NCBI GenBank assembly: GCA_030390025.1
Contig: CM059432.1
Span: forward strand, 47,494,001 to 47,558,000
Direction: 5' to 3'
Origin: Squalus acanthias
Lineage: Eukaryota
Length of the DNA: 64,000 bases
How positions within the stretch are numbered: position 1 is the first letter of the stretch; each line of letters opens with the position of its first letter. A program made the position numbers and the translations under genes. Below are positions 2,612 through 57,687 of the stretch, piece by piece. A model generated the notes under the pieces. It saw only the letters and a program-made list of their open reading frames with translations. It was not told the origin of the DNA and ran no database searches.

Positions 2612-3395
2612 GGTGTAGGTGTAGTCGTATCTCCTCTGAGTTGTGCTGAACTGTGGAAGTAATTTGAAAGGTTTCATATTGGGGGAAAAAAAAATTCACT
2701 AAATTTCCAGGGAGGATGCAATTGTTCTAAACAAGTTGTATTATACAGTTTAGTGTACAAAGTAATCACTTAGTGATGTGAAAGATAAAGGTGATTTAAC
2801 AGTAGCTGCTTTTAATTGGTAAATGTAAGAATGTTCAAATAATTTATAGAATAAGCCACCATTGACATCATTGTAAAAGGTATGATATTGTCTTCTCTTT
2901 CATTTAAGATGATTTTTTTTTCCAATGAAGTTCGCTGTTTTTAATGCACGAGTTTTAAAGACGGCACAGATTTGCTGCAGACAACTCATGACGAATTCAT
3001 GGCAGCTTTTTATTAACTTGCAAAAAGAATAAACGGATACATTAAAACAGTTCAGTGCACTAATGCGTTATCATGCAGGGATAGGTTTTGGGTTTCTGCT
3101 GCAAGTTCTTGATCATGGTCACACCATGGTAGGGGATCAGGATGCCAGGCAGTGGCTAATTGTTTCTTCAGATAAAAAGAGTACAAATTGCGGACCATCT
3201 CAACCCAAGCCCATGTAGTCGCCAAGTATCACATTAGCATTGGCCTTCGAATGACTGATTGATTGGTTTGCCCACTTAGTCAGAAAATAGTGCTTGACCT
3301 AAAGAAATAGGAAAAATATGATTGGAAGAAAGAAGTTTATTTGAATGCAAAATTGCCGTTTCCAATAGACAAGTTGCACGCTGTGTTTCATCTAG

Positions 3396-3555
3396 TACAA
3401 ATGGTGAGCTTCTGTGGCGCCTTGCTCGTGCATCACGTGACTTGGCTCAACTGGAAAGCACCTCCACGGAAAAGAAGAAGCAGCTGACGTATGAAGCTTT
3501 GGAGTTTGCTGCGAAGGCACTGGAGAAAAACGAATTGAGCTTTGCCGCTCATAAG
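3396..3555 (+). CDS. RMDN1: RMDN1 coding exon, 160 nt
   Basis: tctag|...CATAAG|gtaatg; encodes STNGELLWRLARASRDLAQL...ALEKNELSFAAHK; phase matches previous exon. Confidence 0.95.
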
Positions 3556-3636
3556 GTAATGCATAGCATTTTGTCATGTTTTTTCAATTTTCTGCCATAT
3601 TTTGTGATCTTAATGGTTTTTTTAAATCTTGTACAG

Positions 3637-3726
3637 TGGTATGCTATATGCATCAGTGATGTTGGAGACTACGAGGGCATCAAGGCTAAAATTGCAAATG
3701 CTTATGTCATTAAAGAACATTTTCAG
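3637..3726 (+). CDS. RMDN1: RMDN1 coding exon, 90 nt
   Basis: gtacag|...TTTCAG|gtaagt; encodes WYAICISDVGDYEGIKAKIANAYVIKEHFQ. Confidence 0.95.
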
Positions 3727-3930
3727 GTAAAGTAGCAGGCAATAAATATGACATTTCCCAGTTGTACAATATCACTGCATTTATTTTTCGTGTTTTTTGT
3801 GTGAAAAGTAGTCCTGCTTCTATTAATGGTGAGATTGAGAAGCCTAATTTAGAGTATTTGGGAGAGGGGTTATAAATAAGTATAGTGAAGAAGCAAAGTA
3901 GTTTAAAATAGTAAGCACAAGATGTACCTT

Positions 3931-11424: not shown

Positions 11425-14400
11425 TCATAGAACGATACAGCACAAAAGGAGGCCATTTGGCCCATCGTGCTTGTGCCGGCTCTTTGGTAGGCCTGTAATT
11501 TTTTTCCCTTCAAGTATTTATCCAGTTCCCTTTTGAAAGTTACTATTGAATCTGCTTCCATCACCCTTTTAGATTCAAGATCACAACAACTTGCAGTGTA
11601 AAGAAATGTTTCCTCATGTCGCCTCTGGTTCTTTTGCCAGTGACCTTAAATCTGTGTCCTCTGATTACTGACCTTTCTGCCACTGGAAACAGTTCTCCTT
11701 ATTTACTCGATCAAAACCGTTCATGATTTTGAACACTGCTACCAAATTTCCTCTTGACCTTCTCTGCTCAAAGGAAAACTACCCTAGCTTCTCCAGTCTC
11801 CGTATAACTGAAGTCCCTTATCCCTGGTACCATTTTAGTAAATCTCTTCTGCACCCTTTCTATGGTCTTGACATCCTTCCTAAAGTGTGGTGCCCAGAAT
11901 TGAACACAATACTCCAGCTGAGGCCTAACCAGTGTTTTATAAATGTTTAGCAGAACCTCCTTGCTTTCATACTCTCTGCCTCTATTAATAAAGCCAAGGA
12001 TCCCATATGCTTTTTTAACAGTCTTATCAACATGTCCTGCCTCCTTCAAAGATTTGTGTACCTACACCCCCAGGTCTCTCACTTCCTCCACCCCCTTTAA
12101 AATTGTACCATTTAGTTTATACTGCCTCTGCTCATTCTCCCTACCAAAATGTATCGCTTCACTTCTCTGCATTAAATTTCATCTGCCATGTGTCTACCCA
12201 TATCACCAGTCTGTCTATGTCCTGAAGTCTGTTACTATCCTCCTCCATTGTTTACTACATTTCCGAGTTTTGTGTCATCTGCAAACTTTGAAATTATGAC
12301 CTGTATACCCAAGTCCAGGTCATTAATATATATTAAAGAGCAGTTGTTCTAATACCGAACCCTGGTGAACACCACTGTATACTTCTCTCCAGTCTGAAAA
12401 ACAACCGTTCACTGCTACTCTCTGATTTCTGTCCCTCAGCCAATTTTGTATTCACACTGCCACTGTCCCTTTAAATCCATGGGCTTAAATTTTGCTAACA
12501 AGAATAAAACCGGAAGGACCACTTGGCATCGGCACCGGCTACGGACACGACAATGGCACACCCAGCCCAGTCGACCCTGCAAAGTCCTCCTCACCAACAT
12601 CTGGGGACTTGTGCCAAAATTGGGAGAGCTGTCCCACAGTCTAGTCAAGCAACAGCCTGACATAGTCATACTCACAAAATCATACCTTTCAGCCAATGTC
12701 CCAAACTCCTCCATCACCATCCCAGGGTATGTCCTGTCCCACCGACAGGACAGACCCACCAGGGGTGGCAGCACAGTGGTATACAGTCGGAAGGGGTGGC
12801 CCTGGGAGTCCTCAATATTGACTCCGGACCCCATGAAGTCTCATGGCTTCAGGTCAAGCATAGGCAAGGAAACCTCCTGCTGATTACCACCAACCGATCT
12901 CCCTCGGCTGATGAATCAGTACTACTTCATGTTGAACACCACTTGGAAGACGCACTGAGAGTAGCAAGGGCACAAAATGTACTCTGGGTGGGGGACTTCA
13001 ATGTCCATCACCAAGAGTGGCTCGGTAGCACCACTACTGACCGAGGTGGCCGAGTCCAGAAGGACTTGCCTGCCAGTCTGGGCCTGCGACAGGTGGTGAG
13101 AGAACCAACACAAGGGGAAAAACCTACTTGACCTCGTCCTCACCAATCTACCTGTCGCAGATGCATCTGTCCATGACAGCATTGGTAGCAGTGACCACCG
13201 CACACTGAGGACACCCTCCATCGTGTTGTGTGGTACTACCGCTGTGCTAAATGGGATAGATTCAGAACAGATCCAACAGCTCAAAACTGGACATCCATGA
13301 GGCGCTGTGGGCCATCAGCAGCAGCAGAATTGTATTCCACCACAATCTGTAACCTCATGGCCCGGCATATCCCTCACTCTACCATTACTACATTGTCTCT
13401 CAAAATTTCCCAACCACCGACGTTAAAATGACTAGCCTGTAATTGCCTGGTTTATCCCCTTCTCCTTTTGTAAACAGGAATGTAACATTTGCAATCCTCC
13501 TGTCCTCTGGCACCACCCCCGTATCTAAGGAGGATTGTAAGTTTGTGGCCAGAGCCTCTGCAGTTTCAACCCTTACTTCCCTCAGTAACCTAGGATGCAT
13601 CCCATCTGGACCGGGTGACTTTTCTACTTTGAGGACTGTCAACCTTTTAAGTACCTCCTCTTCACCTATTTTTATCCTATCAAATATCGCTACTACCTCC
13701 TCCTTTACTGCTACATTGGCAGCATCCTCTTCTCTAGTGAAGACAGATGCAAAGTACTCATTTAATTACCTCAGCAATGCCCTCTGCCTGCACAAGAATA
13801 GCTCCTTTTTCAGTTCCTAATCAGCCCACCCTTCCTTTGACTACCCCTTTACTATTTTTAAGTTTATAAAAGACTCTAGGGTTCCCTTTTATGTTGGCCG
13901 CTAATCTATCCTTGTACTCTCTCTTTGTCCCTCTTATTCCCTTTTTTAAGATCCCCTCTGTACTTTCTATATTGAGTTTCATGCTCTACTGTATTATGTA
14001 CCTTACATTTGTCATAAGCCTCCTTTTTCTGACTCATTTTAATATCTATATCTTTTGTCATCCAGGGAGTTCTAGCTTTGGATGCCCTTCTTTCCCCCTC
14101 ATGGAAATATGCCTATTCTCTACCCGAACCATCTCCTCTTTGAAGGCCTTGCATTCTTCAATTATTGTTTTGCCTACCAATTTTGATTCCAATCCACCTG
14201 GGCCAGATCCCTTTTCAACACACTGAAGTTAGCCCTCTTCCAGTTAAGTATTTTTATACTATATTGTTCCTTGTCCTTTTCTATAACTTTTCTAAACCTG
14301 ATGATATTATGATCACTGTTTCCCCAAAATGTTCCCCCACTGAAACATAGGAACAGGAGTAGGCCATTTAGCCCCTTGACTCTGTTCTGCCATTCAATTA

Positions 14401-15150
14401 GATCATGGTTGATCTGTGACCTCACTGCATATACCTGCCTTTGCCCCATATCCCTTAATACCTTTTGGTTAACAAAAATCTATCAATCTCAGATTTAAAT
14501 TTTAGACCATGCCCCCTTGTCCTAGACTCCCCAACCAACAGAAATATTTTTTCTCTCTCTACCCTATCAGTTCCCCTTAATATCTTGAAAATTTTGATCA
14601 AATCACCCCTAAACCTTCTAAATTCCAGGGAATACAACCTTAGTTTGTGTTATCGCTCCTCGTAATTTAACCCTCCAGGTCCCGGTACCATTGTGGTAAA
14701 TCTACGCTCCAGTCCCTCCAAGGCCAATATGTCCTTCCTAAAGTGTGCCCAGAACTGCTCGCAGAACTCCAGCTGTGGTCAAACCAGGGCTTTGTATAGC
14801 TGTAGCACAACTTCTACCCCTTGTATTCTAGTCCTCTAGATATAAAGGCCAGCATTCCATTAGCATTTTTGATTATTTTCTGTACCTGTCCATGACATTT
14901 TAATGGTCTATGTACATAGACCCCTAAGTCTCCACTTGCCCCATTTCATTCACCAGAACTAGATTCAGCCCTGCTTCCTTCCTCGTTGGGCTCGAAACAC
15001 ACTGATCAAGAACATTGTCTTGTACACATTTCAGGAATTCTTCACCCTCTTTGCCCTTTACACTGATGCTGTTCGAGTCTATATTAGGATAACTGACGTC
15101 CCCCATTATCACTACTCTGTATGTCATGCATCATTCCGTAATTTGCCTGC
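11425..15150 (-). mobile_element. decayed CR1 LINE interrupted by a + strand LINE (12499-13390) and by the 3' end of another CR1 (~14342-14920)
   Basis: RT and APE fragments in order on the - strand ([34 protein letters not shown]); second CR1 tail at ~14343. Confidence 0.85.
12499..13390 (+). mobile_element. second non-LTR retrotransposon family, APE-containing 5' part
   Basis: APE motifs NIWGL, ILT(E/K)SYL, WVGDFN, SDH; near-identical to 15168-16086. Confidence 0.85.
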
Positions 15151-15152
15151 AT

Positions 15153-17226
15153 ACGAAAAACAATAATAAGAATAAAACCGGACGGACTACCCGGCATCGA
15201 CCTCGGCTAGGGAAACGACAACGTCACACCCAGCCCAGTCAACCCTGTAAAGTCCTCCTCACCAACATCTGGGGACTTGTGCCAAAATTGGGAGAGCTGT
15301 CCCACAGACTAGTCAAGCAACAGCCTGACATAGTCATACTCACAGAATCATACCTTTCAGCCAATGTCCCAAACTCCTCCATCACCATCCCTGGGTATGT
15401 CCTGTCCCACCGACAGGACAGACCCACCAGGGGTGGCGGCACAGTGGTATACAGTTGGGAAGGAGTGGCGCTGAGAGTCCTCAACATTGATTCCAGACCC
15501 CATGAAGTCTTATGGCTTCAGGTCAAGCATGGGCAAGGAAACCTCCTGCTGATTACCACCTGCCGCCCTCCCTCAGCTGATGAATCAGTACTCCGCCATG
15601 TTGAACACCACTTGGAAGAAGCACTGAGAGTAGCAAGGGCACAGAATGTACTCTGGGTGGGGACTTCAATGTCCATCACCAAGAGTGGCTCGGTAGCACC
15701 ACTATTGACCGAGCTGGCCGAGTCCTGAAGGACATAGCCGCCAGTCTGGGCCTGCTACATTTGGTCAGAGAACCAACACGAGGGAAAAACCTACTTGACC
15801 TCGTCCTCACCAATCTACCTGTTGCAGATGCATCTGTCCATGACAGCATTGGTAGCAGTGACCACCGCACAGTCATTGTGGAGACGAAGTCCCGTCTTCA
15901 CACTGAGGACACCCTCCATCATGTTGTGTGGCACTACCACCGTACTAAATGGGATAGATTCAGAACAGATCTAGCAGCTCCATACTGGGCATCCATGAGG
16001 TGCTGTGGGCCATCAGCAGCAGCAGAATTGTATTCCATCATAATCTGTAACCTCATGGCCCGGCATATCCCTCACTCTACCATTACCGTCAAGCCAGGGG
16101 AGCAACCCTGGTTCAATAAGGAGTGTAGAAGAGCATGCCAGGAGCAGCACCAGGCATAAATGAGGTGCGAACCTGGGGAAGCTGCAACACAGGACTACAT
16201 GCATGCTAAAAAGCAGAAGCAGCATGCTGTGGACGGGGCTAAGCGATCCCACAATCAACGGATCAGATCAAAGCTCTGCAGTCCTGCCACATCCAGTCGT
16301 GAATGGTGGTGGACCATTAAACAACTATCGGGGCGGGGAGACTCCATGAATATCCCCATCCTCAATGATGGTGGAGCACAGTACATGAGTGCAAAAGACA
16401 AGGCTGAAGCATTTGCAACCATCTTCAGCCAGAAGTGCTGAGTGGATGATCCGTATTGGCCTCCTCCTGAGGTCCCCACCATCACAGAAGCCAGTCTTCA
16501 GCCAATTCAATTCACTCCATTTGATATCAAGAAACGGCTGAGCGCACTGGATACAGCAAAGGCTATGAGCCCCGACAACATCCCGGCTGTCGTGCTGAAG
16601 ACTTGTGCTCCAGAACTAGCCGCACCTCTAGCCAAGCTGTTCCAGTACAGCTACAACACTGGCATCTATCCGACAATGTGGAAAACTGCCCAGGTATGTC
16701 CTGTCCACAAAAAGCAGGACAAATCCAATCCGGCCAATTACCGCCCCATCAGTCTACTCTCAATCATCAGCAAAGTGATGGAAGGTGTTGTCGACAGTGC
16801 TATCAAGCGGCACCCGCTTGATTGGCACCCCATCCACCACCGGTGTACCGTGGCTGCGGTGTGTACCATATACAAGATGCACTGCAGCAACTCACCAAGG
16901 CTTCTTCGACAGCACCTCGTAAACCCGTGATCTCTACCACCTAGAAGGACAAGGGCAGCAGGCTCATGGGAACACCACCACCTCCAACTTCCCCTCCAAG
17001 TCACACACCATCCTGACTTGGAAGTATATCGCCGATCCTTCATCGTCGCTGGGTCAAAATCCTGGAACTCCCTCCCTAACAGCACTTGGGCGTACCTTCA
17101 CCACATGGACTGCAGCGGTCAAGGAAGGCGGCTCACCACCACCTTCTCGAGGACAATTAGGGATGGGCAATAAATGCTGGCCTTGCCAGCGACGCCCACA
17201 TCCCATGAACGAATATAAAAAAAAAA
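15153..17226 (+). mobile_element. second non-LTR retrotransposon family (CR1/L2-group), RT core deleted, poly(A) tail
   Basis: APE, linker and RT N-terminus (NYRPISLLSIISKVME) jump at ~16813 to the ORF2 C-terminus; ends aataaatgctggcc...gaatat(A)n. Confidence 0.85.
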
Positions 17227-20541: not shown

Positions 20542-22990
20542 TATAGAATCATAGAACGGTTACAGCGCGGAAGAAGGCCTTTCGGCCCGTCGAGCCTGTG
20601 CCGGCTCTCTGCAAGAGCACCTCAGCTAGTCCCACTCGCCTGCCCTTTCCCCGTAGCCTTGCAAGGTTTTTTCTTTCAAGTACTTATCCAACTCCCTTTT
20701 GAAAGCCTCCACCACCCTTTCAGGCAGTGCATTCCAGATCCTAACCACTCGCTGCGTAAAAAAGTTTTTTCTTATGTCGCCTTTGGTTCTTTTGCCAATC
20801 ACAGTAAATCTGTGTCCTCTGGTTCTCGACCCCTCTGCCAATGGGAACAGTTTCTCTATCTACTCTGTCCAGACCCCTCATGATTTTGAACACCTCTATC
20901 AAATCTCCTCTCAATCTTCTCTGCTCTAAGGAGAACACCCCCAATTTCGTATCCATGCAGCCACTGTCCCTTTATTCCATGGGCTTGTCACTTTGTCGAA
21001 CGCCTTTTGGAAATCCATGTACACCACGTCAACCGAATTGCCCTCATCAACCCTCTCTGTTACCTCATCAAAAAACTCAATCAAGTTGGTTAAACACGAT
21101 TTTCCTTTAACAAATCCATGCTGGCTTTCCTTAATTAATCCACACTTGTCCAAGTGACTTTTAATTTTGCCCCTGATTATTGTTTCTAAAAGCCTATGGA
21201 AGACTTTTGGATTACCCTTTATGTTAGCTGCCATTCTATTCTCATCCCCTCTCTTTGCTCCTCTTTTTTCACTTCTCCTCTGAACTTTCTATATTTAGCC
21301 TGATTCTCAGATGTATTCTTGACCTGACATATGTCATACGCACTCTTTATCTGCTTCATCTTACTCTCTATCTCTTTCGTCATCCAGGGAGTTCTGACTT
21401 TAGTTGCCCTACCTTTTCCCCTCGTGGGAATGTACCTTGACTGTAGCCAAACTATTTACTCTTTAAAGGCAGCCCATTGTTCCACTAAAGTTTTGCCTGC
21501 CAATTTTTGATTCCAATTTACCCAGCCAGATCCGTTCTCATCCCACTGAAATTGGCCTTCCTCCAATTAAGTATTTTTACTCTAGATTGCTCCCTGTCCT
21601 TTTCCATAGCTAATCTAAACCTTATGATACTATGATCACTGTTCCCTAAATGTTCACCTACTGACACTTGCTCCACTTGACCCACCTCATTCCCCAGAAC
21701 CAGATCCAGTAATGCCTCCTTCCTCATTGGGCCGGAAATGTACTGATCAAGAAAGTTCTCCTGAACACACTTCAGAAATTCTTCCCTCTCCCTGGCCTTT
21801 ACACTACTACTATCCCAGTCTTTATTTGGATAGTTGAAGTCCCCCATTATCACTACTCTATAGTTCTTGCATCTCTCTGTAATTTCTCTGTAAATCTGCT
21901 CCTCCATATTTTTCCCACTAGTTGGTGGCCTATAGAATACACCTAGTAGTGTAATGGCACCTCTATTATTTCTTAACTCTAGCCATATAGATTCTGTCCT
22001 TGACCCCTCCAGGACATCCTCTCTCTCCAGCACTGTAACATTCTCCTTAACCAATACTGCCACCCCATCTCCTATCTTTCCTGAACACCCTATATCCAGG
22101 AATATTTAAAACCCAAACCTGCCCTTTTTTGAGCCAGGTCTCCGTCAATGCCACGACATCATATTCCCATGTGGCTATTTGCGCCTGCAGCTCACCAACC
22201 TTGTTTACTATGCTTCGTGCGTTCACATACATACACTGTAAACCTATCTTAGACCAGCCTGTGTTCTCTCTTAGTCTGACCCCGCCTAATACCTTACTAT
22301 TTCTTACTCTAGTGCTATCCGTCTCTCCCAATCCTTTGTGCCCATTGTTTCTCCTTTCTAATGCTACATCCTGGTGCTCATCCCCCTGCCAACTTAGTTT
22401 AAACCCTCCCCAACAGTGCTAGCAAACCTCCCCGCGAGGATATTCTTACCGGCACTGTTGAGGTGCAACCCGTCCGGCCTGTACAGGTCCTACGTCCCCC
22501 AGAACCGGCCCCAATGCCCCAAGAATCTGAAGCCCTCCATCCTGCACCATCTCTCCAGCCACTCATTCATCTGTTCTATCCTCCTATTCCTGTACTCACT
22601 CGCACGTGGCACCGGGAGTAATCCGAAGATTACTACCTTTTGAGATCCCACTTTTTAATCTCTTTCCTAGCTCCCTAAAATCTGCCTGCAGGACCTCATC
22701 CCTCTTTCTACCTATGTCGTTGATACCGATATGGACCATGACCTCTGGCTGTTCACCCTCCCCCCTCAGAATGTTCTGCAGCCGCTCAGTGACATCCTTA
22801 ATCCTGGCACCAGGGAGGCAACATACCGCCCTGGAATCATGTCTGCGGCCGCAGAAACACCTGTCTGCTCCCTAACTATCGAATCCCCATACCACTATTG
22901 CTTTCCCTATCTTCCTCCTCCCCGCCCCCCCCGTACAGCTGAGCCACCCGTGGTGCCGTGGACTTGGCTCTGGCTGTACCCCCCAGAGAA
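20542..22990 (-). mobile_element. CR1 LINE with multiple internal deletions; retains ORF1 esterase region, ORF1/ORF2 junction, APE and 3' tail
   Basis: ORF1 ends ...TVGEGLN* at 22394; APE motifs VNARS, LTETW, YRPP, MGDFN, SDH; TGATTCTA-type tail at ~20545. Confidence 0.9.
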
Positions 22991-41535: not shown

Positions 41536-44500
41536 ACATAGATACATAGATACATAGAACAGTACAGCACAGTACAGGCCCTTCGGCCCTCGATGTTGTG
41601 CCGAGCATTGTCCGAGACCAAGATCAAGCTATCACACTCCCTATCACTCTGGTGTGCTCCATGTGCTTATCCAATAACCGCTTGAAAGTTCCTAAAGTGT
41701 CCGACTCCACTATCACAGCAGGCAGTCCATTCCACACCCCAACCACTCTCTGAGTAAAGAATCTACCTCGGACATCCCTTCTATATCTCCCCCCATGCAC
41801 CTTATAGTTATGCCCCCTTGTAACAGCTGCCTCTACCCGAGGAAGTAGTCTCTGAACATCCACTCTATCTATCCCCCTCATCATCTTATAAACCTCTATT
41901 AAGTCGCCTCTCATCCTCCTCCGCTCTAAAGAGAAAAGCCCCAACTCCCTCAATCTTTCCTCATAAGACCTCCCCCCCAAACCAGGCAGCATCCTGGTAA
42001 ATCTCCTTTGCACTCTTTCCAATGCTTCCACGTCCTTCCTATAGTGAGGTGACCAGAACTGCACACAATATTCCAAATGTGGTCTCACCAAGGTCCTGTA
42101 CAGTTGCAGCATAACCTCACGGTTCTTAAACTCAAACCCTCTGTTAATAAACGCCAACACACCATAGGCCTTCTTTACTGCTCTATCCACTTGAGTGGCA
42201 GCCTTCAGAGATCTGTGGATATGAACCCCCAGATCCCTCTGCTCCTCCACGTTCCTCAGAACCCTGCCGTTGACCCTGTAATCCTTATTCAAATTTGCCC
42301 TACCAAAATGAATCACCTCGCACTTATCAGGGTTAAATTCCATCTGCCATTTTTCGGCCCAGCTCTGCATCCTATCAATGTCTCTTTGCAGCCTACAACT
42401 GCCCTCCACCTCATCCACTACTCCACCAATCTTGGTGTCATCAGCAAATTTACTGATCCACCCTTCAGTCCCCTCCTCCAAGTCATTGATAAAAATCACA
42501 AACAGCAGAGGACCCAGCACCGACCCCTGTGGCACACCGCTGGTAACTGGTCTCCAGTCCGAAAATGTTCCATCCACCACCACCCTCTGCCTTCTATGAG
42601 ATAGCCAGTTACTTATCCAATCGGCCAAATTTCCCTCTATCCCACAACTCCTTACTTTCTTCATGAGACGACCATGGGGAACCTTATCAAACGTCTTACT
42701 AAAATCCATGTATACGACATCAACTGCTCTACCTTCATCTACACACTTAGTTACCTCCTCAAAGAATTCAATCAAATTTGTTAGGCAAGACTTACCCTTC
42801 ACGAATCCGTGTTGACTATCCCTGATTAAGTTGCCCCTTTCCAAATGGTCATAAATCCTATCCCTCAGGACCTTTTCCATTATCTTACCAACCACCAAAG
42901 TAAGACTAACCGGCCTATAATTACCAGGGTCATTCCTATTTCCTTTCTTGAAGAGAGGAACAACATTCGCCACTCTCCAGTCCTCTGGCACCATCCCCGT
43001 GGACAGTGAGGACCCAAAGATCAAAGCCAGAGGCTCTGCAATCTCCTCCCTTGCCTCCCAAAGAATCCTAGGATATATCCCATCTGGCCCAGGGGACTTA
43101 TCGACCCTCAGGTTCTTCAAAATTGCTAAAACATCTTCCCTCAGAACATCTACCACCTCCAGCCTATCCACCTTTATCACACTCTCATCCTCAAGAACAT
43201 GGCCCCTCTCCTCGGTGAACACTGACGAAAAGTATTCATTCATCACCTCTCCTATCTCTTCTGACTCCATGCACAAGTTCCCACTACTGTCCTTGACCGG
43301 CCCTACCCTCACCCTGGTCATTCTTTTATTTCTCACATAAGAGTAAAAAGCCTTGGGGTTTTTCTTGATCCGACCCGCCAAGGACTTCTCATGCCCCCTC
43401 CTAGCTCTCCTAAGCTCTTTTTTTAGCTCATTCCTTGCTACCTTGTACCCCTCAATCGACCCAACTGAACCTTGTTTTCTCATCCTTACATACGCTTCCT
43501 TTTTCCTCTTGACTAGACATTCAACCTCTTTTGTAAACCATGGTTCTCTCACTCGGCCATTTCCTCCCTGCCTGACAGGGACATACCTATCAAGGACACG
43601 CAGTAATTGCTCCATGAAAAAGCTCCACTTCTCGTTTGTGCCTTTCCCTGATAGTTTCTGTTCCCATCTTATACTCCCTAATTCTTGCCTAATCGCATCA
43701 TAATTACCCCTCCCTCAATTATAAACCCTGCCCTGCCGTATGGCCCTATCCCTCTCCATTGCAATAGTGAAAGTTACCGAATTGTGGTCACTATCTCCAA
43801 AGTGCTCTCCCACATACAAATCAAACACTTGGCCCGGTTCATTACCCAGTACCAAATCCAACGTGGCCCCAGCTCTTGTCGGCCTATCCACATATTGTGT
43901 CAGGAAACCCTCCTGCACACACTGTGCAAAAACTATCCCATCCGAACTGTTTGACCTATAAAGGTTCCAATCAATATTTGGAAAGTTGAAGTCACCCATG
44001 ACAACTACTCTGTGACCTCCACACCTATTCATAATCTGCTTTGCAATTTCTTCCTCCACATCTTTATTACTATTTGGGGGCCTGTAGAAAACTCCTAACA
44101 ACGTGACCGCTCCTTTCCTATTTCTAACTTCAGCCCATATTACCTCAGACGGCAGATCCCCCTCGAACTGCCTTTCTGCCGCTGTTAAACTATCCTTGAT
44201 TAACAATGCTACTCCTCCACCTTTCTTACCAACTTCCCTACTCTTACTGAAACATCTATACCCCGGAATTTCCAACAACCATTCCTGTCCCTGTTCTAAC
44301 CATGTCTCCGTAATGGCCACCACATCGTAGTCCCAAGTACCAATCCACGCTCCAAGTTCTCCTACCTTATTCCGGATGCTCCTTGCATTGAAGTAGACAC
44401 ACTTCAAGCCATCTTCCTGTCTGCCGGTACATTCCTGCGACCTTGATACCCTCCTCAGTACCTCCCTACACTCACCACTGGCTCCTGGACTACAGCCCTT

Positions 44501-44921
44501 TTTCCCATCCCCCTGACAAATTAGTTTAAACCCCCCCGAAGAGCCGTAGCAAATTTCCCTCCCAGGATATTGGTGCCCCTCTGGTTCAGGTGCAAACCGT
44601 CCTGTTTGTACAGGTCCCACCTTCCCCAGAATGTGCTCCAATTATCCACATAACTGAAACCCTCCCCCCTACACCATCCCTGCAGCCACGTGTTTATCTG
44701 CACTCTCTCCCTGTTCCTCAACTCGCTAGCACGTGGCACCGGCAACAAACCAGAAATTACAACATGGTTTGTACTGGCTCTCAGCTTCCAACCTAGCTCC
44801 CTAAATTCCTGTTTTAAATCCCCGTCCCTTCTCCTACCTATGTCGTTGGTACCGATGTGTACCACGACTTGTGATTGTTCCCCTTCCCCTTTGAGGATTC
44901 TGAAAACACGGTCCGAGACGT
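41536..44921 (-). mobile_element. near-intact CR1/HER1 LINE: ORF1 SGNH-esterase C-terminus plus full ORF2 (APE+RT) with one nonsense codon
   Basis: ORF1 VHIGTND...DGLHL...GGLN* (stop 44521-44523); ORFs 43715-44641 and 41624-43615 share one frame, split only by TGA at 43715-43717; TGTATCTA-type tail. Confidence 0.96.
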
Positions 44922-54557: not shown

Positions 54558-55787
54558 TTAATCTTTAATTCATTTCTATCTATTTTCCAACATTTAGATA
54601 ACCTGGTCACTTCTTAATTTTAGCTCCTAATAATGTAATATATTCTCTTCCCAATTTTATTTACTTTTCCTGTTTAGTTGTGTTTTTATATTTTGCAATT
54701 TAATAAACCTGCATCATGTAATAAATTTAGCTAGCAAATTTTATGTTAACCAGAAGGAGTCACATATATGATTCTGGGCTAGTGGGGGGAAAGACATGGA
54801 AGTGAGAGAAGTTGCTTTGATACAAAGATGGGAGTAAAAACAAAGTTTAAAAAAAAAGCAAATTCCAGCCAGTCTTGCACCCCTTCCATATGCCAATCAC
54901 AGAGAAGCACTGAAAAAAGTAGGCCACCTGCCAGTTATAAAAATACCAATGTTATATTTTGCTTACAATAGTGCATTCAACTTAATTGTTAGAATTTGTC
55001 TTCCAAACTTAAATTAAAGCCCATGGGAAATGGGACAGCGGCAACATGGATACAAAACTGGCTAAGGGACAGAGAGCAGAGAGTGATGTAAACAATTGTT
55101 TTCCAGATTGGAGGGAAGTATACAGTGGTGTTCCCCAGGGGTCAGTATTACGACCATTGCTCTTTCTCATCTATATTGACCTGGGCTTGGGTATAGGGGG
55201 CATAATTTCGAAGTCTGCAGATGACACGAAACTCAGAAATGTAGTTAACGATGAGGAGGATGGTAACAGATTTCAAGAGGACATAGACAGACTGGTAAAA
55301 TGGGCAGACACATGGCAGATTAAATTTAACGTAGAGAAGTGTGAAGTGATGCATTTTGATAGGAAGAATGAGGAGAGGCAATATAAACCAAATGGTACAA
55401 TTTTAAAGAGGGTGCAGGAACAGAGAGACCTAGGGCTGTATGTACACAAATCTTTGAAAAACCTGTTAAAAAAGCATATGGGATCCTTGGCTTTATTAAG
55501 AGGCTCAGGGCTGGATTTTGCCATTGTGGGCGGGCTGGGGTGTGTCAGGTGACATTCGTGTCAGGATCCCGACTCCGAAGTGAAGTGGGGAAAAAGTGCG
55601 ATTTTCCCCTAATTGGTCAATTGATTTCCAGCGTGTGGGAACCCCTGGCCCAATGAGTCTTTTCATCCAGAAAGTCGCCTCCGATGACGTCATCAATGCT
55701 GCTGGATTTAAGGCCGGAAAGCAGCCTTGCTTCTTCTAGAGACTGCAAACTTTATGGCCATTGTAGTAAGCACTTCATTGATCGACT

Positions 55788-57687
55788 ATGTTCACCAGTA
55801 GGCCAAAGTGTGCTCCACGCTTCGATGAGCCCTCCCTCCAAGCTCTGGTGGAGGGAGCAAGATCCAATAAGGAGGTGCTCTTCCCTTCCTCGGAGAAAAA
55901 AGCCACCCCAGCAGACTAAAGCTGTGTGGCTCCAAGTGGCCCAGGAGGTCAACTCCATCTCGATGAGCCGCAGAACCTGGCTGCAATGCAGGAAGAGGTT
56001 TCATGACCTTCTCCGCACAGGAAAAGTGAGTATGACTTTCCCATCACCCTCAATCTGATCCCCATCACCTCTCCTCACCAGCTCTCTGCTTTGCCAACCT
56101 CTTCCTCCATATCCCACTTGACACTTACATCCCTGCACCCTTACCCATTCCCTCTCTCTCTATGGTCACATTCACTTAACTATTCGACCATGCAGCCCTC
56201 ACACTCCCCATCACTGTGATGCAACGAGAACTTACAACACACAGGGAGGGTCCTTTGTCTCCTTCTAAGCATCTATGCTATGGATTCTCTACACTCACTC
56301 CTTCATTCTCACTCAAACTCCACTTGTGTCCCTCATTTCAGGAAAAGAGAGCCCACAATAAGAGGGAAAGAGTGAGGACAGGAGGAGGGCCACCCTCAGT
56401 AGCCCAGCTCACCGCTTGGGAGAGGCGGCCCTGGAAATCGCCGGGATCGAGGACGATTCCCAAGTGGGGGACGGACAGGCGGGCACATCACAGCAAGCTG
56501 GTGACAGAATAGTTTGGCATCTCTCTCATTGACATTGCATGAGTCACTGATAATGATTCTGAAGCTCTAACAGATTGACTTATAATCATCTGCACTTTCA
56601 ATGTGCATGTAACCTTGACCTCACATCTCTAACTCTTTCCCTACAGGTTCATCGAAAGCCCCCGTCCCCACTGTCCAGGAGGAACAGCCTTAGCCTCCAG
56701 ACTCCTCAGAGGAAGCTGCAACCTCTGAGGGCGCAGCGTCAGCAGAATTCAGTGCACCCAGCACCAGCACAGATACTCACACATTGGTGGGACCTTCGCG
56801 AGATAGAGTAGTGTTGTCACTTGGTGTATCACAGCTCACAAGTGAGCATCAGCAGATGGTGGAGACAGGGACAGCAGTGGAGAGTCCTTGTCGGAGGGCG
56901 CAGGACTCTGCCAGCTCGGCTCAGCTGCATGTCGACCCTGTGCCTCCGGGTCCATCCAGAAGGAGAGCGGTGCTGGAACTCCAGGAACAGGTGCAGGAGT
57001 CTCTGGCAGGTTTTGTCTCCAGGGTCGCTGCGAGTGTGGAGCCCATTGCGAACATGAGCAGAGCCTTTGTGAAGGCATTGGCGCATGAACGCATCACCGT
57101 GGAAAGGATGGCTACCTCCGTGGTAAGGCTGGCTACCGTAGAGGAGAGGATGGCTATGGCCATGGAGGAGCTTAGTCGCCAGGGTCTTGAAAACATGGTC
57201 ATTATTCAGAATAGAATGACATCTCTTGAGGAGCGATGGTCAGCTATTGAGCATACAAACCAGACCTTCATGGAAGTCCTCTGGAGTAGGACTTCCAGTG
57301 CAGAAACGGGTCCTCATGGCCCCCCTGCAGTGCAGCAAGGTTGGCTGTCAAGCCCCTTGCTAGCTCTGAAGTGGGGCTGACCCATGAGAGGGAGGTTGGT
57401 GGCAGACAACAAGTGGGGGCACCTCTCCAAGCGACCATGCCATTGCAAAGCCCTCGGTCAGAGCCCCACCAGAGTCCTCACCCAACTGAGATGGGCCTCT
57501 CAGCCCCTGCACAGCCGCAGGAGCAGCAGACTGATGCCGAGCCCTAACAGGTTCGCAACCCCGGAGGACGCCCACCAAAAGTGTCGAGACAGGAGCAGAA
57601 AGTGAGAAAGGGGCCAACACATCTGCTGAAGCCACAGGGGAAGCACCATGTAGGAGCACGCTTAAGAGGAAGATAAAGCACAAGTAG
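55788..57687 (+). pseudogene. Harbinger Myb/SANT-like DNA-binding protein gene (NAIF1/MSANTD-like), 3 exons, frameshifted
   Basis: Exons ~55788-56025, 56342-56500 and 56647-57687 with GT-AG sites; APRFDEPSLQALV...VLFP, W.QVAQEVNS...RTWLQCRKRFHDL, RTGGGPP, then a coiled-coil-like region. Confidence 0.8.

Follow-up and report, generated by a model that had tools for sequence, protein, structure and literature searches.

Conserved slippery heptamer at the ORF1-ORF2 junction of CR1 elements points to −1 ribosomal frameshifting

The 64,000-nucleotide (nt) stretch of the Squalus acanthias genome analysed here, hereafter the window (assembly GCA_030390025.1, contig CM059432.1, positions 47,494,001 to 47,558,000), carries a copy of a CR1 retrotransposon, a long interspersed nuclear element (LINE) with two open reading frames (ORFs), and it is likely through a programmed −1 ribosomal frameshift that ORF2 of such elements is made, fused to ORF1 in a single protein. 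The signal, the heptamer U_UUA_AAC directly before the ORF1 stop, is real and deeply conserved at the RNA level, with a stimulator that is most likely non-canonical. A fusion of this kind had been proposed in an earlier note made from the letters of the window, and the comparisons reported here support it by fixed silent sites, by the lack of a conserved upstream AUG and by contigs in which no splice was found. The features of the window on which the analysis is built are:

41540..44921, minus strand: young CR1 LINE copy, 5′-truncated (identity to copies L225 and L226)
44521..44921, minus strand: 3′ remnant of ORF1 with SGNH/GDSL esterase domain (PF13472, E 3e-12)
44524..44530, minus strand: slippery heptamer U_UUA_AAC, in phase with the last ORF1 codons (identical in 13/13 families)
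44521..44523, minus strand: ORF1 stop TAA directly after the heptamer (families: TAA 7/13, TAG 6/13, TGA 0/13)
44504..44514, minus strand: G-rich motif AGGGGGAnGG, candidate stimulator (invariant Gs in 13/13 families)
44408..44524, minus strand: linker in the −1 frame from the shift site to the endonuclease, without ATG in the window's family
43784..44395, minus strand: APE-type endonuclease domain of ORF2 (PF03372, E 1.5e-22, residues 46-249 of the frame from 44530)
44030..44032, minus strand: first in-frame ATG of ORF2, about 120 codons into the endonuclease
43715..43717, minus strand: premature TGA within ORF2 of the window copy (other copies open)
42224..42943, minus strand: reverse transcriptase (RT) domain of ORF2 (PF00078, E 2.5e-35)
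41540..41623, minus strand: short 3′ untranslated region (UTR) ending in 8-nt tandem repeats (from the sequence)
22394..22403, minus strand: heptamer with TAA where ORF1 of a second CR1 family ends; this family is more diverged

The assignment to the CR1 clade is drawn from domain layout and ORF1 homologues. APE and RT lie in one frame, ORF1 carries an SGNH esterase, the short 3′ UTR ends in a microsatellite and 5′ truncation is frequent; a short 3′ UTR with 8-nt terminal tandem repeats is a trait of CR1 elements. The CR1 3′ end is described as 'hairpin plus microsatellite' (PMC8665684). The window copy is truncated inside the ORF1 esterase at about 44921 and bears a TGA, and therefore the evidence rests on its family and not on the copy itself. 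It belongs to a young subfamily, being 99.3-99.5% identical to the full-length copies L225 and L226 across about 3370 nt. Of 1394 first-look candidates in the 3.7-Gb source genome, 40 were scored against its 301-nt junction; the top score went to 28, and each of the 40 was listed at 100%. Intact copies of the family encode an ORF1 of 308 amino acids with an N-terminal Cys motif and are open for 968 codons from the heptamer, and ORF2 is open for 968-999 codons in 5 of 20 long copies. The closest named proteins to this ORF1 come from sharks and rays, and homologues occur in sharks, rays, frogs, turtles and birds.

The minus-strand sequence of the junction is GGT TTA AAC TAA. Its heptamer occupies 44530-44524 and is phased X_XXY_YYZ relative to the ORF1 codons, as the earlier note had it; the stop follows at 44523-44521. 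The −1 frame (FKLICQGDG...) runs without a stop into LKCVYFNARS, and its first ATG, at 44032, is codon 167 from the heptamer with the Pfam endonuclease match beginning at codon 46, which bears out the description of ORF2 as start-less. The apparent Met at 44641 is indeed a TTG, at which the open −1 frame starts 37 codons before the heptamer. As an ORF2 start this TTG was rejected, being specific to the family, since in most families a stop lies 1-5 codons upstream in this frame. Nor can ORF2 start from the in-frame ATG at 44677, as a TAG closes the frame two codons later. By chance alone TTTAAAC is common, with 31 occurrences in the window (15 on the plus and 16 on the minus strand), and a single occurrence therefore means little; both CR1 ORF1 ends in the window have it in phase ahead of the stop.

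The silent positions of the heptamer were compared between families, defined as clusters at 80% and represented by one real copy each (n = 13, shark-type and bird-type; 4 of 16 clusters had no intact copy and were left out of the codon table). Twelve families compared pairwise are 37-91% identical upstream. In all 13 the third codon before the stop ends in T, as GCT, GGT, TGT, TCT, GAT or CAT, which are codons for six amino acids, and is followed by TTA and AAC, against backgrounds of 21% for codons ending in T, 14% for Leu as TTA and 36% for Asn as AAC. Across the 129 columns of the 12-family codon alignment the third base is invariant in only seven: two Trp codons, two scattered columns and the three adjacent codons of the heptamer. 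Seven other invariant residues with a choice of codon use two to four codons each. Synonymous variation of the heptamer, which had been named as a possible refutation, was not encountered among the 13 families, and the constraint acts on nucleotides because the silent bases of these codons are fixed while other invariant residues vary theirs.

The heptamer was then counted in individual copies at junctions located from the esterase alone, by queries without the last four ORF1 residues. Sixty 10-kb stretches were placed arbitrarily in the source genome and surveyed together with the window (8 of 22 rows were dropped as mis-anchored duplicates from the truncated query P0050); 12 of 12 junctions in these stretches carry the heptamer, nine exactly and three shifted 1-3 nt by indels. 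With the window included, 14/14 junctions have TTTAAAC and TAA or TAG, 11 of them exact and three displaced by small indels. In a wider set of 143 junctions the heptamer stands exactly where the esterase predicts it in 125; small indels have shifted it in 6, and 12 carry other mutations, as is expected for decaying copies. A later set was exact in 30/30. Sixty loci were found by DNA queries that themselves contain the heptamer and are biased, so that a fair test comes from the counts per family and from the arbitrarily placed stretches. Metagenomes scanned with ORF1 peptides distant from the junction gave 31 loci, with ORF1 45-97% identical to bird-type proteins at the anchor. Eleven reach the junction, 10 with TTTAAAC TAG and one with a deletion; 3/31 are cut just before it and 17/31 lack the anchor. 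CR1 ORF1 sequence was also met under the bacterial names Pseudomonas and Providencia (P0006, L153), where it is likely vertebrate contamination.

Upstream of the heptamer the −1 frame is closed within five codons in 84/125 copies and in 10 of 13 listed clusters (1-5 codons), and therefore ORF2 cannot start upstream in most families. An upstream ATG in an open −1 frame is present in 4/125 copies. Downstream, 103 of the 121 copies where the endonuclease could be located (125 examined) have it in the −1 frame, and the modal linker lengths of 99, 123, 138, 141, 153, 162, 186, 195 and 267 nt are all multiples of three. Stops in the linker are found in 9/103 copies in the −1 frame as against 102/103 and 103/103 in the other two, and 74/103 copies have no Met in the linker, leaving 29/103 with one. 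In contigs of a related organism the alignments break just past the G motif and resume where the endonuclease starts; the linkers there are longer by 3 nt. In three families the first Met of ORF2 stands at codon 167, 179 or 256. To judge from the reading frames, translation of the linker begins at about the heptamer and needs no AUG, because its lengths come in multiples of three, its −1 frame is open and Met is mostly absent.

The motif might instead be kept for some other reason, such as a C-terminal LN, ancestry, a TATA-like box or a weak poly(A) signal, with ORF2 starting independently downstream. TTTAAA does resemble TATA and poly(A) variants and G/U-rich sequence follows it, and the Met-bearing linkers of some families would offer starts. 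Protein constraint, however, cannot fix silent bases, a promoter or poly(A) signal needs neither codon phase nor a single-frame linker, and downstream initiation would cost three families half or all of their endonuclease. This explanation is very improbable. Hardly credible is splicing of an upstream AUG to ORF2, in which CUAA would be the branch point and the acceptor would be the AG conserved ahead of the G run. CTAA or CTAG is followed by AG 9-10 nt on in 11/13 families. Such a branch point lies too close, however, and a pyrimidine tract is missing. Four runs contain this element or one very close to it, and their contigs, whose status as RNA is guessed, cross the junction with no splice joint; none of the 12 joints listed from four runs of a relative is GT..AG, in contigs that drop rare forms and are likewise RNA by guess. 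The lone joint starting with GT at the junction in the relative's runs skips 57 nt and remains in the ORF1 frame. Neither a conserved upstream AUG nor a splice, the two alternative sources of an ORF2 start raised beforehand, was found to supply one.

Stop readthrough was discarded as it cannot change the frame, and transcriptional slippage as the upstream G run is not conserved. Under programmed −1 frameshifting most ribosomes would terminate and release an ORF1 protein of about 308 amino acids. Ribosomes would pause with UUA-AAC in the P and A sites, and a minority, carrying tRNA-Leu and tRNA-Asn on these codons, would slip one base back, decode CUA as Leu and proceed through linker, endonuclease and RT to a product of about 1270 amino acids in the window's family (308 + 966), giving a fixed ratio of ORF1 protein to fusion in the manner of gag-pol. 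The F-K form of the transframe peptide given in the earlier note has to be replaced, as tandem slippage under the standard model predicts ...GGLN-LICQGDG or ...GGLK-LICQGDG. The pause, the least certain step, would probably come from the adjacent stop and a linear G run 10 nt on and not from a pseudoknot, with the G run perhaps acting through a bound protein, a two-tier quadruplex or contact with the mRNA entry channel.

The motif AGGGGGAnGG stands at a fixed place, its G run beginning 10 nt past the heptamer, and the Gs at +11, +12, +14, +15 and +19 are invariant in 13/13, two of them at third positions of the −1 frame. The linkers are G-rich overall (GGG makes up 16/63 Gly codons) and composition may account for part of this conservation; the fixed spacing of the run in both shark-type and bird-type elements argues for function. 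Quadruplex scoring gave a weak two-tier quadruplex in 5 of 12 families, all shark-type, and a quadruplex was set aside as general stimulator for that reason. Local RNA structure was likewise rejected, there being no significant conserved fold in 12 families. The G-rich tract, which the earlier note put forward as a stimulator together with the adjacent stop, does not form a conserved hairpin. Frameshifting at arterivirus nsp2 is driven by nsp1beta and PCBP through a short linear motif about 10 nt past the site, with no RNA structure. That motif is C-rich with known binding proteins, whereas the CR1 motif is G-rich and we know of no protein that binds it.

The ending xLN is found in 53/56 ORF1 proteins named from sharks, rays, frogs, turtles and birds, and in more of them in a wider set; one chimaera protein ends LNY. 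A hidden Markov model search of representatives at 50% identity (best 150 of 9590) reached unnamed, more distant esterases, and the 89 with a locatable end comprise 50 LN, 9 GN and 30 others. Relatives were added and the ends dereplicated to 117. None of 59 LN ends has E, K, Q, M or W as residue −3, so that 0/59 are unable to end in T, versus 21/59 at residue −4. Among 13 GN ends residue −3 is Q or K, which cannot end in T, in 10, and can end in G in 13/13. The contrast at residue −3 has a Fisher p of 5e-10, overstated since the rows are related. The GN ends match a swap of U_UUA_AAC for G_GGA_AAC, which is suggestive, although these proteins may not all be CR1. The GN-ending clade, with QGN or xGN, consists of P0212, P0213, P0223, P0225, P0228, P0230, P0236, P0261 and P0279 with their relatives. 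A few other distant esterases end GF or FF, which could correspond to G_GGU_UUU or U_UUU_UUU.

Several findings weigh against frameshifting or limit its reach. The families share ancestry and their counts are not independent, and DNA-level evidence covers shark-type and bird-type elements, with frogs and turtles represented by protein ends. Four copies with an expanded upstream G run (L200, L204, L205, L210) read G_UUA_AAC, which may be mutation or a homopolymer assembly error, and one copy reads C_UUA_AAC. One lizard ORF1 protein ends LK and 39/89 of the distant representatives do not end LN. DNA of GN-type, frog or turtle elements was looked for and not found: viral contigs held a single unrelated locus on a first search and nothing on a second, plasmids held nothing, prokaryote genomes gave one short contig without a junction, and the source genome gave LN-type families only. 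Among the hallmarks of programmed frameshifting, the in-phase X_XXY_YYZ, an open −1 ORF without independent start (apart from an AUG by the stop in 4/13 families) and silent-site conservation are present, and a stem-loop or pseudoknot 5-9 nt downstream is not. No shared fold was seen there, pseudoknots not being modelled explicitly, and the G motif has no local complement. No conserved hairpin follows the stop (z-scores of 80-nt folding from −0.44 to +1.72 in 12 families), and therefore the stimulator is not coronavirus-like. A long-range partner of the G motif common to the families was not found in 20 long copies, a comparison made with no shuffle control.

A further point of this kind is an AUG in the ORF2 frame 0-2 nt past the stop in 4/13 families and 9/125 copies, which belongs to the main rival, termination-reinitiation as in L1 and SART1. 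Ribosomes would here restart in the −1 frame by the stop, at an AUG or another codon, with the heptamer and the G run holding the 40S subunit. The AUG-bearing families are three bird-type ones with AUG 2 nt after TAG and one shark-type cluster with UAAUG in 4/7 copies; in the window's family there is no AUG beside the ORF1 stop. A UAAUG stop-start overlap straight after the heptamer was seen in the L208 cluster and in L096:7121 (plus strand). SART1 uses such a UAAUG with a downstream RNA element (PMC10275272), and ORF2 of both L1 and SART1 depends on ORF1 translation (PMC2881922). L1 ORF2 is moreover reported to tolerate any sense codon in place of its AUG (PMC1965478), and therefore a missing AUG alone proves nothing. 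An in-frame linker is predicted by reinitiation as well. Against it, the adjacent AUG is confined to those nine copies, and no AUG or near-cognate codon is common near the stop in the 13 families. The motif UGGGA, motif 1 of the termination upstream ribosomal binding site (TURBS) lying 40-80 nt upstream of the stop, occurs in that interval in 3/13 families and at differing places. The exact X_XXY_YYZ form and phase are also left unexplained by reinitiation, as is the covariation of residue −3 with LN versus GN. We regard reinitiation as unlikely to be the general mode, and it could coexist with frameshifting in some lineages.

Programmed frameshifting, the preferred reading, has precedents in viruses and in other LINEs. 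U_UUA_AAC is the shift site of coronavirus and arterivirus ORF1a/1b and of retroviral gag-pol, and with G_GGA_AAC it is among the most shift-prone heptamers on mammalian ribosomes (PMC5009743). CR1 shares with these systems the heptamer, its phase, a start-less −1 ORF, and a structural protein upstream of a polymerase. It differs from them in lacking a conserved pseudoknot 5-9 nt on, in having an adjacent stop and a G run at 10 nt, and in its host, a non-long-terminal-repeat retrotransposon. Dictyostelium TRE5-A and TRE3-A are stated to need a −1 frameshift for ORF2 (PMC5911963). Their APE-RT layout of ORF2 is the same and TRE5-A is a LINE precedent for −1 frameshifting, but, as compared by description, they belong to another clade and kingdom and no esterase ORF1 is described for them. 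L1 and SART1 likewise have a bicistronic RNA, an ORF2 tied to ORF1 translation and a stop near the ORF2 start, and one CR1 cluster has UAAUG; they yield free ORF2 protein from an AUG, whereas most CR1 families have no AUG before the endonuclease and all have the heptamer. For Paramecium LINEs +1 frameshifting or reinitiation has been suggested (PMC5405496), and frameshifting in HeT-A gag is mentioned in PMC5009743, of which the portion covered does not mention 'CR1'. ZfL2-1, with an esterase-bearing ORF1 protein of the CR1 clade, has the SGNH esterase at the ORF1 C-terminus as here, and neither 'frameshift' nor 'slippery' occurs in the portion covered of that report (PMC3905857). The literature covered holds no report linking CR1 to frameshifting and no statement on how CR1 ORF2 is translated; primary CR1 papers and Repbase notes lie outside this coverage and may hold an earlier suggestion.

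If true, frameshifting would mean that the ORF2 protein is in fact an ORF1-ORF2 fusion, in which the esterase is covalently linked to ORF2, and would set the two proteins at a constant ratio, as happens in retroviruses. It would explain the many intact ORF2s that have no start codon, which bears on how 'intact' copies are annotated, and would offer a frameshift cassette of about 30 nt that is free of structure. Many reptiles and sharks have CR1 as their dominant repeat. It is also that of the chicken genome, at 11.8% (PMC11835228). More tentatively, vertebrate CR1 from cartilaginous fish to birds may make its endonuclease-RT only as an esterase fusion, through a new kind of stimulator composed of the adjacent stop and an unstructured G run at fixed distance, to which a protein may bind, with distant relatives using G_GGA_AAC. 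Few frameshift signals of vertebrate genomes would then be as old or as abundant; in this full extent the proposal is possible and we would not quite expect it to hold.

Elsewhere in the window a different LINE family is represented by two decayed copies, at 12398-13314 and 15093-16930 on the plus strand. Their APE domain starts VLLTNIWGL, and neither a slippery junction nor an esterase ORF1 was picked up next to them. Frames at 3322-3735 (plus strand) are presumably host exons, resembling a regulator-of-microtubule-dynamics (RMDN) protein. At 55657-57380 (plus strand) frames with a Myb/SANT-like stretch (…WLQCRKRFHDLLR…) are followed by a helical region, and we take these to resemble the DNA-binding gene of a Harbinger-type transposon.

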